A stretch of DNA of 33,079 nt, from the IMG/VR virus record IMGVR_UViG_2698536401_000003; one strand, 5' to 3'. Origin of the DNA: a virus. Its lineage: Duplodnaviria; Heunggongvirae; Uroviricota; Caudoviricetes. Under the pieces are notes generated by a model. That model was not told the DNA's origin. It worked only from the letters and a program-made list of their open reading frames with translations, and ran no database searches. This document shows, piece after piece, positions 13,096 through 14,408 of this stretch (the first letter of the stretch is position 1; the number at the start of each line of letters is the position of its first letter). Made by a program: the position numbers and the translations under genes.

Positions 13096-13131
13096 CACCG
13101 GAAGGACCCACACAAATGAGAGCATTTATCA

Positions 13132-13317
13132 TTAACATTTACAGATAAGATGACGTACATCATTGAAACGCCATTCAGCCATATACCGGCAGCATTCGTA
13201 GTTGCACTCCGTAACTCTGCGACTAAGGTTAAAAACATGGCCCTCTTTTGCCACCGGCAAATCTTCAATGGATTTCCCCTGCCGGTTTTTTATTTTCGTC
13301 GATGCATAACATTGCAT
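13132..13317 (-). CDS. Hypothetical small Cys-rich protein (61 aa); weak call
   Basis: ORF-track ORF just inside the genome end next to cos, with 6 Cys; no convincing Shine-Dalgarno. Confidence 0.25.
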   Translation of the reverse strand: MQCYASTKIKNRQGKSIEDLPVAKEGHVFNLSRRVTECNYECCRYMAEWRFNDVRHLICKC

Positions 13318-13476
13318 TTACATCAATAGCGGCTATTGTCATTAGTATGTTGCATCAATGCATGGGTGGTATTGGCGGTCTTCGCCGGCCGGTTCTGTGT
13401 AGCTGCTCCCTGTGACCGGTTTTTTATTTCTCACATTACAGCAGCCCCTTAGAGTGAAGGGCTGCTGTAATGCCTG

Positions 13477-13584
13477 TTACTCACGAATCAAACGAGCATG
13501 CTGACCACTCATTTCAATGCGTAAGTATTGTGGCTTGCCGTCAATCAACGCGGTGATTAACTTGTCACCTGTAGGTTTCCACAT
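13477..13584 (-). CDS. Hypothetical small protein (35 aa)
   Basis: ATG preceded by AACAGGAGAAAATT (strong SD, about 7-nt spacer); translation MWKPTGDKLITALIDGKPQYLRIEMSGQHARLIRE; followed by a perfect 9-bp stem hairpin (13439-13467). Hand-derived coordinates. Confidence 0.35.
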   Translation of the reverse strand: MWKPTGDKLITALIDGKPQYLRIEMSGQHARLIRE

Positions 13585-13757
13585 AATTTTCTCCTGTTTT
13601 AATGCCCCTTGCCGCCAGGCAGTTGATCAAAGTTCATCTTGATTCGGCAAGATTTAGAATGAATAAGATAAAATTGGCACACGCAGCAGAATTTCATGCT
13701 TTCCGGACGTCGGCGCATCCTTCATTTTTCAGCAAAATATTCTGCCATTTCAGTCGT

Positions 13758-13940
13758 TCAGTTATGCATACACTGTCGGACACCATTGACAATTTCACAG
13801 ACCTGAGAGGCAGCATCCAAAAGCTGACGCGCCCTATCCAGGCTGACGCATCCCGACAATAAAAAAGGCACCAGTATCGCTACCAGTGCCCATTTCGCCG
13901 CCGTTCGCGGCATTCTGTGTGTCCAGTGTTTTCGCGTCAT
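13758..13940 (-). CDS. Small putative lipoprotein
   Basis: Part of ORF 13758..14024; from the ATG at 13940 the N-terminus MTRKHWTHRMPRTAAKWALVAILVPFLLSGC has a positively charged n-region, hydrophobic core and L-S-G-C lipobox. The mature part is only about 30 aa. An alternative start is at 13913. Confidence 0.5.
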   Translation of the reverse strand: MTRKHWTHRMPRTAAKWALVAILVPFLLSGCVSLDRARQLLDAASQVCEIVNGVRQCMHN

Positions 13941-14078
13941 ATCACCACTCACGATTTCAGAGCAACAATCAACTTTGCCATCCCATACAGCATCGGAGAC
14001 ACGGCGATGCCAACCGCCACCCACTTAATGGCAAAAGCCACCGCCCGGATAAGGCAGAGATTCGCCGGATTTTCTGTC

Positions 14079-14231
14079 TTATCTACAAACATATGCTATC
14101 GCTGCAACCGCAAAACCAATTGCCCCGATCATTGCCGATAATGCAAGAATAATTCCGGCAATATTTGCTGCTTTAGGTGTCATACTGCCCCCTATACTCA
14201 GAAAGGTTTTATTGTTATCCTTTACTTGCAT
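14079..14231 (-). CDS. Small C-terminally anchored membrane protein (50 aa)
   Basis: ATG at 14231 preceded by GGAGATAATTC; translation MQVKDNNKTFLSIGGSMTPKAANIAGIILALSAMIGAIGFAVAAIAYVCR has a polar N-terminus and a single C-terminal TM helix. Below the ORF-track size cutoff; hand-derived coordinates. Confidence 0.45.
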   Translation of the reverse strand: MQVKDNNKTFLSIGGSMTPKAANIAGIILALSAMIGAIGFAVAAIAYVCR

Positions 14232-14275
14232 GAATTATCTCCATGTCTGATATGCGTTTCTGATTTTGCCAAAAT

Positions 14276-14318
14276 ACAACCCCGGACTGTTCCAGCAGCC
14301 GGGGTTTTGTTTTTTGCC
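14276..14318. terminator. Rho-independent terminator (bidirectional hairpin) immediately downstream of the endolysin gene
   Basis: ACCCCGG-actgttccagcag-CCGGGGT stem followed by TTTTGTTTTTTG on the plus strand and by a T-run on the minus strand. Confidence 0.6.
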
Positions 14319-14408
14319 ACCTGGCACTATTGCCCGAGCCTGCACCCATCGTAGCCCCAGAAAAGAGCCTGCATGAGTTGAGGGTGTTCAGCACTTCAGT
14401 GTCAGTTT

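Follow-up and report, generated by a model that had tools for sequence, protein, structure and literature searches.

How phages without recognizable spanins get across the outer membrane of their host is an open question, and in a census of spanins 91 of 677 phages had none (PMC6139136). The question arises anew for a 33,079-nucleotide (nt) stretch of tailed-phage DNA (Caudoviricetes; IMG/VR record IMGVR_UViG_2698536401_000003), which we analyzed at its full length and refer to as the window. Behind its endolysin gene, in the slot where an Rz/Rz1 pair is expected, lies a 183-nt gene for a lipoprotein precursor of 60 amino acids (aa). The proposal developed here, to which we give an even chance, is that this lipoprotein is the product of the fourth gene of a phiP27-type lysis cassette and performs the outer-membrane step of lysis alone, replacing Rz/Rz1. 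More tentatively, and at somewhat less than even chances, we suggest that it represents a new class of single-component outer-membrane lysis protein: a lipid-anchored, disulfide-bonded helix of 30 residues without an inner-membrane subunit. Such a protein may work like a colicin release protein that was recruited into a phage lysis cassette.

An earlier note on this DNA had reported no recognizable Rz/Rz1 at this place, and our searches bear this out: no such pair was detected in any frame by open reading frame (ORF) listing, tblastn, lipobox scans or transmembrane (TM) scans. A six-frame listing of positions 13100-14400 contained no minus-strand ORF longer than 88 aa, and the 88-aa ORF is the lipoprotein frame extended to an upstream GTG. 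Across the whole 33-kb window the lipoprotein was the sole ORF with a lipobox, and the TM scan for type II membrane proteins revealed no ORF with an N-terminal TM domain (TMD) followed by a periplasmic domain. When lambda-type Rz/Rz1 and the pair of the type found in Yersinia phage vB_YpM_39 were used as tblastn queries, no match to the window was obtained. The same searches were extended to a comparison set of 88 lipoprotein loci, made up of 80 IMG/VR contigs, three genomes (Salmonella, Citrobacter and Lelliottia), annotated phages, E. coli and the window itself. In these loci, tblastn with the two spanin families found no inner-membrane spanin subunit (i-spanin) within ~6 kb, and a lipobox scan of the same ~6 kb revealed no second recurrent lipoprotein.

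The tiny lipoprotein described in the earlier note is present, with the lipobox LSGC (LVGC also occurs within the family). Among 57 distinct nucleotide sequences of the gene, 53 were intact, and the ratio of nonsynonymous to synonymous polymorphism (pN/pS) was 0.25; judged by this conservation, it is a real gene under selection. All 14 family members tested matched phrog_7528. The cysteine of the lipobox is Cys31 (13848-13850), and the mature lipoprotein comprises 30 aa (CVSLDRARQLLDAASQVCEIVNGVRQCMHN; 13761-13850). It is preceded by an unusually long, basic n-region (MTRKHWTHRMPRTAAK) and by a hydrophobic core that, like the lipobox, is nearly invariant across the family. The lipobox agrees with that of signal peptidase II substrates, and residue +2, which is Val, Ala, Thr, Ser or Gly across the family and not Asp, is compatible with sorting to the outer membrane. 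The cysteines C31, C48 and C57 are invariant (the latter two, 9-10 residues apart in distant members, are Cys18 and Cys27 or 28 in mature numbering). The mature peptide contains no proline in the window and 0 or 1 across the family, its net charge ranges from -1 to +2, and as a helix it is amphipathic, with a hydrophobic moment of 0.45-0.62 (z 0.9-3 against shuffled sequences). A helix was also predicted by AlphaFold2, at low confidence.

Translation of the lipoprotein has to begin at the first ATG, given that several variants have Thr in place of the second Met; the same replacement led us to reject a dual-start motif like that of lambda S. A Tat signal was also considered and rejected: several non-E. 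coli homologues show a twin arginine, for which sequences of the E. coli type have Arg-Thr. Databases label the protein "hypothetical" or "lipoprotein". Pfam, NCBIfam and PADLOC scans of the small ORFs of the block returned no match, and a profile search of PDB sequences with the lipoprotein returned chance matches only.

The position of the gene is as constant as its sequence. In all 86 loci in which the endolysin gene was located, the lipoprotein gene lay downstream of a holin A / holin B / endolysin unit, the endolysin being an M15 peptidase in 52 loci and a GH108 protein in 34. The spacer between endolysin and lipoprotein measured 0-1067 nt, and 0-15 nt in 37 of the 86 loci, both endolysin types included. 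The DNA on the 3' side of the lipoprotein gene varies: it is a region with the 39- and 35-aa ORFs described below, a gene for a 98-aa protein, an HNH endonuclease gene, or cos followed by Nu1. The lipoprotein was present in 352 of 5426 complete E. coli genomes, compared with 376 that carry the holin pair, which occurs at 692 places in the E. coli genomes; it was also found in Salmonella, Citrobacter, Lelliottia and Yersinia. When 1.84 billion representative proteins were searched with a profile, only 22 clusters were returned, ~20 of which look like true members of the family or fragments of such. The genes of distant members (33-44% identity) start 4 nt after the stop codon of an M15 or GH108 endolysin gene or overlap it; the holin near them is of a different family, PF05106, and one of these cassettes is followed by tail genes. 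As judged from synteny, the lipoprotein is tied to the 3' end of the endolysin gene, and not to a given holin, endolysin type or virion module. The lysis cassette had previously been taken to end at a terminator at 14276-14318; the hairpin there is real, but the conserved lipoprotein gene downstream of it belongs to the cassette.

Some of the loci with distant homologues have features of their own. In L092/L093 (1536-8169), the order is Q, PF05106 holin, M15 endolysin and distant lipoprotein, followed by an alpha/beta-hydrolase gene and directly after it by tail and baseplate genes, without intervening head or terminase genes; this cluster could be tailocin-like. In L094 the GH108 gene is split by a frameshift, and a protein of 144 aa, whose N-terminal TMD and helical C-terminal domain give it a layout like that of an i-spanin, is encoded ~245 nt downstream of the distant lipoprotein homologue (L094, 4461-4895; also L095 and L096). 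It was seen in these three contigs and was absent from the other loci.

What else can occupy the slot was learned from Yersinia phage vB_YpM_39, which has homologous holins and a GH108 endolysin 81% identical to that of the window. Its endolysin gene overlaps by 4 nt a gene whose 92-aa product has a TMD at its N terminus and a helical, charged tail; this gene is in turn overlapped by a gene for a 69-aa lipoprotein; by layout and predicted features, these two genes are a textbook overlapped spanin pair. The pair also occurs in 37 IMG/VR loci (38 loci in all). Holins A and B are detectable ahead of it in 25 or 26 of these loci, and a GH108 endolysin, 81-85% identical to that of the window, in nine; the holins of the spanin-pair cassettes are 44-52% (A) and 31-43% (B) identical to their counterparts in the window. 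The lipoprotein was found in none of the 38 spanin-pair loci, and a spanin in none of the 88 lipoprotein loci. Because the two occupants of the slot are mutually exclusive, the lipoprotein would appear to do the job of the spanin pair, and this is the strongest argument that we have for its role. The earlier note had offered "non-canonical spanin equivalent" as a reading of the whole block of small genes. That description fits the lipoprotein, by slot position and by exclusivity, but it does not fit the 50-aa peptide or the Cys-rich 61-aa ORF.

A sequence of events in which the lipoprotein acts alone can be envisaged as follows. Under Q antitermination, late transcription would pass two hairpins, one at 14278-14306 and one at 13866-13891. 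Opening of the inner membrane and degradation of the wall would be the work of the two holins and the GH108 endolysin, as expected of their families. The lipoprotein precursor would be exported and, by standard sorting rules, lipidated at Cys31. The mature protein, modeled as a roughly neutral, proline-free amphipathic helix, would carry two further invariant cysteines that are probably disulfide-bonded. Once the wall is gone, it might destabilize the outer membrane, either directly or, by analogy, through activation of outer-membrane phospholipase A. The 50-aa and 47-aa membrane peptides encoded between endolysin and lipoprotein would have no part in the outer-membrane step and would possibly be modulators of timing.

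The second of the two hairpins lies within the lipoprotein gene itself, in codons 17-29 of the signal peptide. Its folding energy is -25.6 kcal/mol (z -4.6), and 0 of 200 shuffled sequences folded as well. In the 57 distinct sequences the stem is almost invariant at the nucleotide level, third codon positions included. Lelliottia and L094 retain the hairpin; at the equivalent place in L092 there is a different one, of 7 base pairs (bp). By analogy with terminator T1, which precedes the lysis gene of ColE7, it may limit expression of the lipoprotein when Q antitermination is lacking.

Several observations weigh against a lipoprotein that acts alone. The stand-alone reading is based on synteny, selection and sequence features only. 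A neutral helix of 30 residues has no obvious means to sense degradation of the wall, and it is possible that a partner is encoded far away in the phage or is supplied by the host. The AlphaFold2 model of the lipoprotein is a single helix of low confidence (predicted local distance difference test score 65). A Pfam scan of the lipoprotein gave no family at E <= 1, the colicin-lysis, Rz1 and entericidin families included. Matches to "Rz-like spanin" entries of PHROGs were weak (E 0.015-0.25, in 1-2 of 14 members); in our judgment they reflect mostly the signal peptide, although the single alignment available reaches into the mature part. The mutual exclusivity could partly reflect lineage, the holins of the spanin cassettes being only 31-52% identical to those of the window. 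Finally, the slot can be empty: in SerU-LTIIb, a partial record, a cassette with window-type holins and a GH108 endolysin contains no lipoprotein gene and no spanin. In that record (L097, 1065-2214), genes for the heat-labile enterotoxin LT-IIb sit after the endolysin gene.

Among the alternatives, the one that survives best holds that the lipoprotein is a genuine outer-membrane spanin subunit (o-spanin) in need of an unrecognized inner-membrane partner, for which a small TM peptide (N-out, C-in), a distal phage protein or a host trans-envelope protein could be proposed. We consider it rather unlikely. It draws on the spanin census (Kongari et al., 2018, PMC6139136), in which Stx2e phage phiP27 is credited with a "separated" spanin whose i- and o-spanin each form a singleton family, and which thereby counts a homologue of the lipoprotein as an o-spanin. 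The phiP27 pair is the shortest in the census, with 62 periplasmic residues in a range of 62-300, and consists of an o-spanin of 51 aa (20706-20861; 30 periplasmic residues, 83% predicted helix) and an i-spanin of 64 aa (20348-20542) (PMC6139136). The o-spanin is indeed a direct homologue of the window lipoprotein (83% identical) and is likewise encoded after the endolysin. The i-spanin frame (L002, 3391-3585), however, starts with TTG and is antisense to a well-formed 90-aa ORF (L002, 3329-3601) that has a 46%-identical homologue in L077, where the "i-spanin" frame has 36 aa and a different C-terminal part. The insert with this frame occurs in only two typed architectures; the window and almost all of the 88 loci lack the frame. 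Given the TTG start, the antisense position to an ORF with a homologue and the absence elsewhere, the i-spanin assignment in phiP27 is probably spurious, and we judge the family, from sequence comparison, to be better described as orphan lipoproteins.

In favor of a partner, an RWW-type TM peptide abuts the start of the lipoprotein gene in at least 19 loci, and the authors of the census suggest that proteins of type I or other topologies could be i-spanins (PMC6139136). Against this, there is nothing between endolysin and lipoprotein in 37 of 86 loci, the genes downstream vary from locus to locus, and the same TM peptides precede canonical Rz genes. The conserved periplasmic cysteines are a further likeness to spanins, nearly all of which carry cysteines in the census (PMC6139136), but 30 periplasmic residues together with at most ~20 from such a peptide cannot span the periplasm. 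As to a distal phage partner, the lipoprotein occurs with two unrelated holin systems, with two endolysin types and with different sets of neighbors (a lambda Nu1-type terminase, a phiP27-type HNH endonuclease, or tail genes directly), so that such a partner would not be co-inherited. Two further candidates were examined and set aside, holin B because the lipoprotein also occurs with PF05106 holins, and the endolysin because two unrelated types are used.

Public annotation of the family is uneven. The phiP27 record has a different frame (L32) annotated at the site of the lipoprotein (L002, 3072-3260), the lipoprotein of vB_Apl-pPE4 (L006, 2501-2683) is unannotated, and some RefSeq E. coli genomes have no feature under the lipoprotein match (L090, ~2815-2997, and three further matches). 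Literature searches by protein accession and for phiSTEC1575-Stx2k yielded nothing useful. We suggest that the public records be corrected with respect to the spurious-looking phiP27 "i-spanin" and to the lipoprotein, which is unannotated or mis-framed in phiP27, vB_Apl-pPE4 and some RefSeq genomes.

A second alternative, which is unlikely in our view, makes the lipoprotein a late outer-membrane protein with a role outside lysis, such as receptor masking against loss of progeny on debris, superinfection exclusion or a host-fitness moron, in phages that simply have no outer-membrane step. Small phage lipoproteins with such roles exist (T5 Llp or Cor in exclusion; lambda Bor), lambda bor lies in the equivalent region, and spanin-defective phages are still able to lyse shaken cultures. 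SerU-LTIIb, with neither lipoprotein nor spanin, would agree with this alternative. Yet the lipoprotein gene is co-directional with two unrelated endolysin genes and 0-15 nt away from them, which leaves no room for a promoter of its own, and a scan of the window detected no consensus promoter. The gene goes with the endolysin, not with tail or receptor-binding genes, and stands next to different sets of virion genes. No PADLOC match was obtained for it. In the loci examined it never occurs together with spanins, and an unrelated function would not predict such exclusivity. A lipoprotein that serves lysis on its own remains the reading that we prefer, at the even chance given above.

The small membrane peptides upstream of the lipoprotein deserve separate treatment, as one of them had been proposed as a toxin-like moron. 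The 50-aa peptide was found in 36 E. coli genomes, in 35 of them at 95-99% identity, with the 47-aa ORF alongside in the loci inspected; a tblastn search of phage records with the 50-aa peptide gave no match. By its low divergence the 50-aa ORF is a gene. At each of the five loci in which its position was checked, it stands within a lysis cassette, with the endolysin on one side and Rz or the lipoprotein on the other; in E. coli 214-4, for example, the 50- and 47-aa pair lies between the lysozyme RrrQ and a canonical Rz. The 47-aa ORF, absent from the list in the earlier note, overlaps the 50-aa ORF by 14 nt. Its conserved part has a pN/pS of 0.24 and its stop codon is kept in 10 of 10 variants, a pattern that identifies it as a gene under purifying selection. 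We considered whether the two could be one frameshifted gene, but the two-ORF arrangement recurs in the other two loci inspected. Full-length relatives of the 47-aa peptide have 60 aa, and in phages PhiR12_2 and PhiR5_1 relatives are encoded between the gene for lysozyme R and a canonical Rz/Rz1. Sequence comparison indicates that the 47-aa ORF is a chimera, namely the 60-aa type with its N terminus replaced by recombination. Two of the small peptide types found in these cassettes share the motif R-A-x-AFAI-[KR], and the breakpoints of chimeras fall inside it; the AFAI[KR] motif seems to act as a recombination joint.

Where a spacer separates endolysin and lipoprotein in the 88 loci, single-TM peptides of 37-60 aa are encoded there in varying combinations, and at least five types of them occur (PHROGs 1115, 3246, 4493 and 12997). 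An HNH endonuclease, a 93-aa protein or proteins of the KilA-N/Bro type may be encoded there as well. In lysis cassettes of E. coli lambdoid prophages, tandem arrays of interchangeable genes for 30-60-aa single-TM peptides were seen ahead of the gene for the outer-membrane step and behind that for the endolysin, in L004 (2438-2766), L005 (2209-2697), L091 (2524-2806) and the spacers of L001-L089. From this distribution, the 50- and 47-aa peptides are mobile accessory genes of lysis cassettes in general and not spanin substitutes, and it is plausible, by analogy with LambdaSo Lcc6, that they modulate the timing of lysis at the level of the holins. A toxin-like moron, such as a type I toxin, is a very unlikely reading of the 50-aa peptide (together with the 47-aa peptide). 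Its small size and hydrophobicity, its single TM segment and its good Shine-Dalgarno sequence, a terminator-like hairpin nearby and a hok/gef toxin gene elsewhere in the window would speak for a toxin. Against this, the peptide was within a lysis cassette at all five loci checked, travels with the 47-aa peptide in such cassettes, and belongs to a set of at least five small TM types that replace one another at its position; no consensus promoter was detected, and there was no Rfam antisense RNA match (12800-15700 scanned, no match of any kind) and no Pfam, NCBIfam or PADLOC match. The hok/gef gene itself, an ORF of the Hok/Gef family in the early region (22127-22339, minus strand; PF01848, E 3e-23), is a real type I toxin candidate.

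All four small ORFs named in the earlier note (those for the lipoprotein and the 50-aa peptide, and the 35-aa and Cys-rich 61-aa ORFs) are present on the minus strand, but they differ in standing. The 35-aa ORF, intact in 8 of 8 distinct variants, of low divergence (pN/pS 0.58) and present also in phage vB_Apl-pPE4, is probably a gene by these measures. The Cys-rich 61-aa ORF does not hold up as one: it lies in conserved cos-adjacent DNA and its frame is frequently broken. Neither it nor the 39-aa ORF on the 3' side of the lipoprotein gene matched a family in Pfam, PHROGs or NCBIfam. The 39-aa ORF is probably not a gene and rather a conserved stretch of DNA, and the variants of both ORFs indicate that their DNA is conserved for other reasons than coding.

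The hairpin between the endolysin and the 50-aa ORF folds at -25.4 kcal/mol on the minus strand (z -3.1) and at -27.8 kcal/mol on the plus strand (z -4.2). As the plus strand provides the better U-tract, the hairpin has the appearance of a bidirectional terminator and not of an operon end. In relatives it recurs within the variable insert that carries the small TM peptide genes, and it is absent where the lipoprotein directly follows the endolysin. Another hairpin, a near-perfect one of 17 bp (13425-13470; -29 kcal/mol, z -7.3), comes directly after the stop codon of the 35-aa ORF; on neither strand does its U/A tract stand on the side that a terminator would require.

Features of the lysis region and its surroundings in the window, in the order of transcription
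Feature	Position	Strand	Evidence or remark
Q antiterminator	19035-19409	-	
tRNA-Gly	16093-16165		
Holin A, 129 aa, several TM segments; first lysis-cassette gene	15224..15613	-	PF16931 Phage_holin_8, E 5e-22
Holin B, 92 aa from ATG, three TM segments; overlaps holin A	14956..15234	-	PF05449 Phage_holin_3_7, E 1e-20
Endolysin, 181 aa, GH108 muramidase domain and PG_binding_3	14409..14954	-	PF05838 and PF09374
Bidirectional terminator-like hairpin	14266..14316	both	stem 14278-14285 / 14299-14306; A-tract and U-tract flanks
50-aa single-TM peptide, hydrophilic N terminus, TMD at ~residues 23-47, GGAG Shine-Dalgarno sequence	14079..14231	-	phrog_12997, E 2e-8
47-aa TM peptide, AFAI[KR] small-peptide family	13949..14092	-	phrog_1115, E 3e-19, C-terminal part only
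60-aa lipoprotein precursor, fills the spanin slot	13758..13940	-	phrog_7528, E 9e-36; lipobox
Intrinsic-terminator-like hairpin, 11-bp stem, 4-nt GCGA loop, U6 tail	13856..13891	-	terminator scan
39-aa ORF, 3' of the lipoprotein gene (probably not a gene)	13599..13718	-	9/19 distinct variants intact, several internal stops, pN/pS 0.55
35-aa soluble ORF, AGGAG Shine-Dalgarno sequence (probable gene)	13477..13584	-	phrog_8025, E 1e-22
Cys-rich 61-aa ORF	13132..13317	-	3/9 variants intact, stops and frame changes, pN/pS 0.81
cosN cohesive-end sequence GGGCGGCAGCGG (gene strand)	13068..13079	-	end of phage cdtI match
Terminase small subunit	12343-12891	-	
Terminase large subunit	10455-12374	-	

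The window represents a lambdoid prophage, whose late genes are encoded by the minus strand. Its closest DNA relatives are E. coli prophages (92-96% identity), and more distant ones are phiP27, phiSTEC1575-Stx2k and vB_Apl-pPE4. In the direction of transcription, the late region contains Q with RusA, a CAAX-protease-like membrane protein, a DNA methyltransferase and the tRNA gene, followed by the two overlapping holin genes, the endolysin gene, the block of small ORFs, cosN, and the genes for the terminase small and then large subunit. The cassette had been described as a holin-like gene, a membrane protein gene and a GH108 endolysin gene; the endolysin stands, and both upstream membrane genes are holins by Pfam. 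Holin A also matches the holin family phrog_198 (E 1e-41), holin B matches the holin family phrog_217 and is annotated at 279 nt in RefSeq relatives, and the endolysin is 99% identical to an annotated GH108 protein of E. coli RM8082. We placed cosN where the match to phage cdtI stops, at window position 13080, which corresponds to the last base of the linear cdtI record; the sequence there, which we take to resemble lambda cosN, is ~50 nt from the small-ORF block. Two genes in the vicinity of Q look like cargo: one for a six-TM CAAX-protease/Rce1-like protein (18064-18888, minus strand) between Q and the methyltransferase gene, and one for a Fic/DOC family protein (21228-21722, minus strand) upstream of Q.

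That the phiP27 homologue is a predicted o-spanin was known already; our data suggest the orphan status of the lipoprotein and the reading that it acts on its own. The family would be a second candidate alternative to spanins, and in the best experimental host, since our literature searches for such alternatives turned up only the disruptin of phage phiKT. Of complete E. coli genomes, ~6% carry it, and the phages that have it include phiP27 and phiSTEC1575-Stx2k, which are Shiga-toxin phages. In several phages the cassette adjoins Shiga-toxin or heat-labile-toxin genes, and because toxin release depends on lysis, the mechanism of lysis bears on it.

How does the lipoprotein compare with known systems? 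With two-component spanins it shares a lipobox and sorting signal, a gene adjacent to that of the endolysin, and the periplasmic cysteines Cys48 and Cys57. It is not a member of that class as defined, because there is no i-spanin gene and the mature part of 30 residues is too short to bridge the membranes. Lambda Rz/Rz1 and the vB_YpM_39 pair likewise occupy the slot after the endolysin and include a lipoprotein with conserved cysteines, and in vB_YpM_39 the slot even belongs to a homologous holin A / holin B / GH108 cassette. In contrast to the helical, proline-free 30 residues of the mature lipoprotein, however, Rz1 has 40 residues and is proline-rich, and the Yersinia o-spanin has 52 residues; no sequence similarity was found between the lipoprotein and either of them. 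The phiP27 spanin of the census has a homologous o-spanin after the endolysin and differs by the added 64-aa i-spanin, which is absent here. Unimolecular spanins of the T1 gp11 type are also encoded by one gene in the spanin slot and have an N-terminal lipobox, but they have a C-terminal TMD, whereas the lipoprotein ends 30 residues after the lipidated Cys and has no hydrophobic segment after Cys31.

The phiKT disruptin, gp28, is not known to have a lipoprotein signal. It is a single small protein, described as a cationic antimicrobial peptide and proposed to replace spanins in disrupting the outer membrane (bioRxiv 10.1101/515445). The lipoprotein is lipid-anchored and, at a net charge of -1 to +2, not a cationic peptide of that kind. 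For the 50- and 47-aa peptides, the nearest parallels are LambdaSo Lcc6, a lysis-associated single-TM protein of similar size that is encoded far from the lysis genes (bioRxiv 10.1101/2024.01.23.576932), and the antiholins, which are small accessory lysis membrane proteins comparable in size and in having a single TM segment.

In size and predicted targeting, the lipoprotein most resembles, by analogy, the colicin lysis lipoproteins. These proteins (ColE7 Cel and others) are lipoproteins of 28 residues in mature form that are sorted to the outer membrane by the Lol system, act via phospholipase A, need no inner-membrane partner to permeabilize the envelope and are lethal when made in excess; their genes are held in check by an adjacent transcription terminator, T1 before the lysis gene in the case of ColE7 (PMC2896534). 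The mature lipoprotein, with 30 residues, lies within the ~27-35 range of colicin lysis proteins and bacteriocin release proteins (PMC2896534) and has a predicted outer-membrane sorting signal; next to the colicin terminator may be set the hairpins before and inside its gene. Unlike them, it is encoded in a prophage late operon after Q, holins and endolysin, and not in an SOS-controlled colicin operon.

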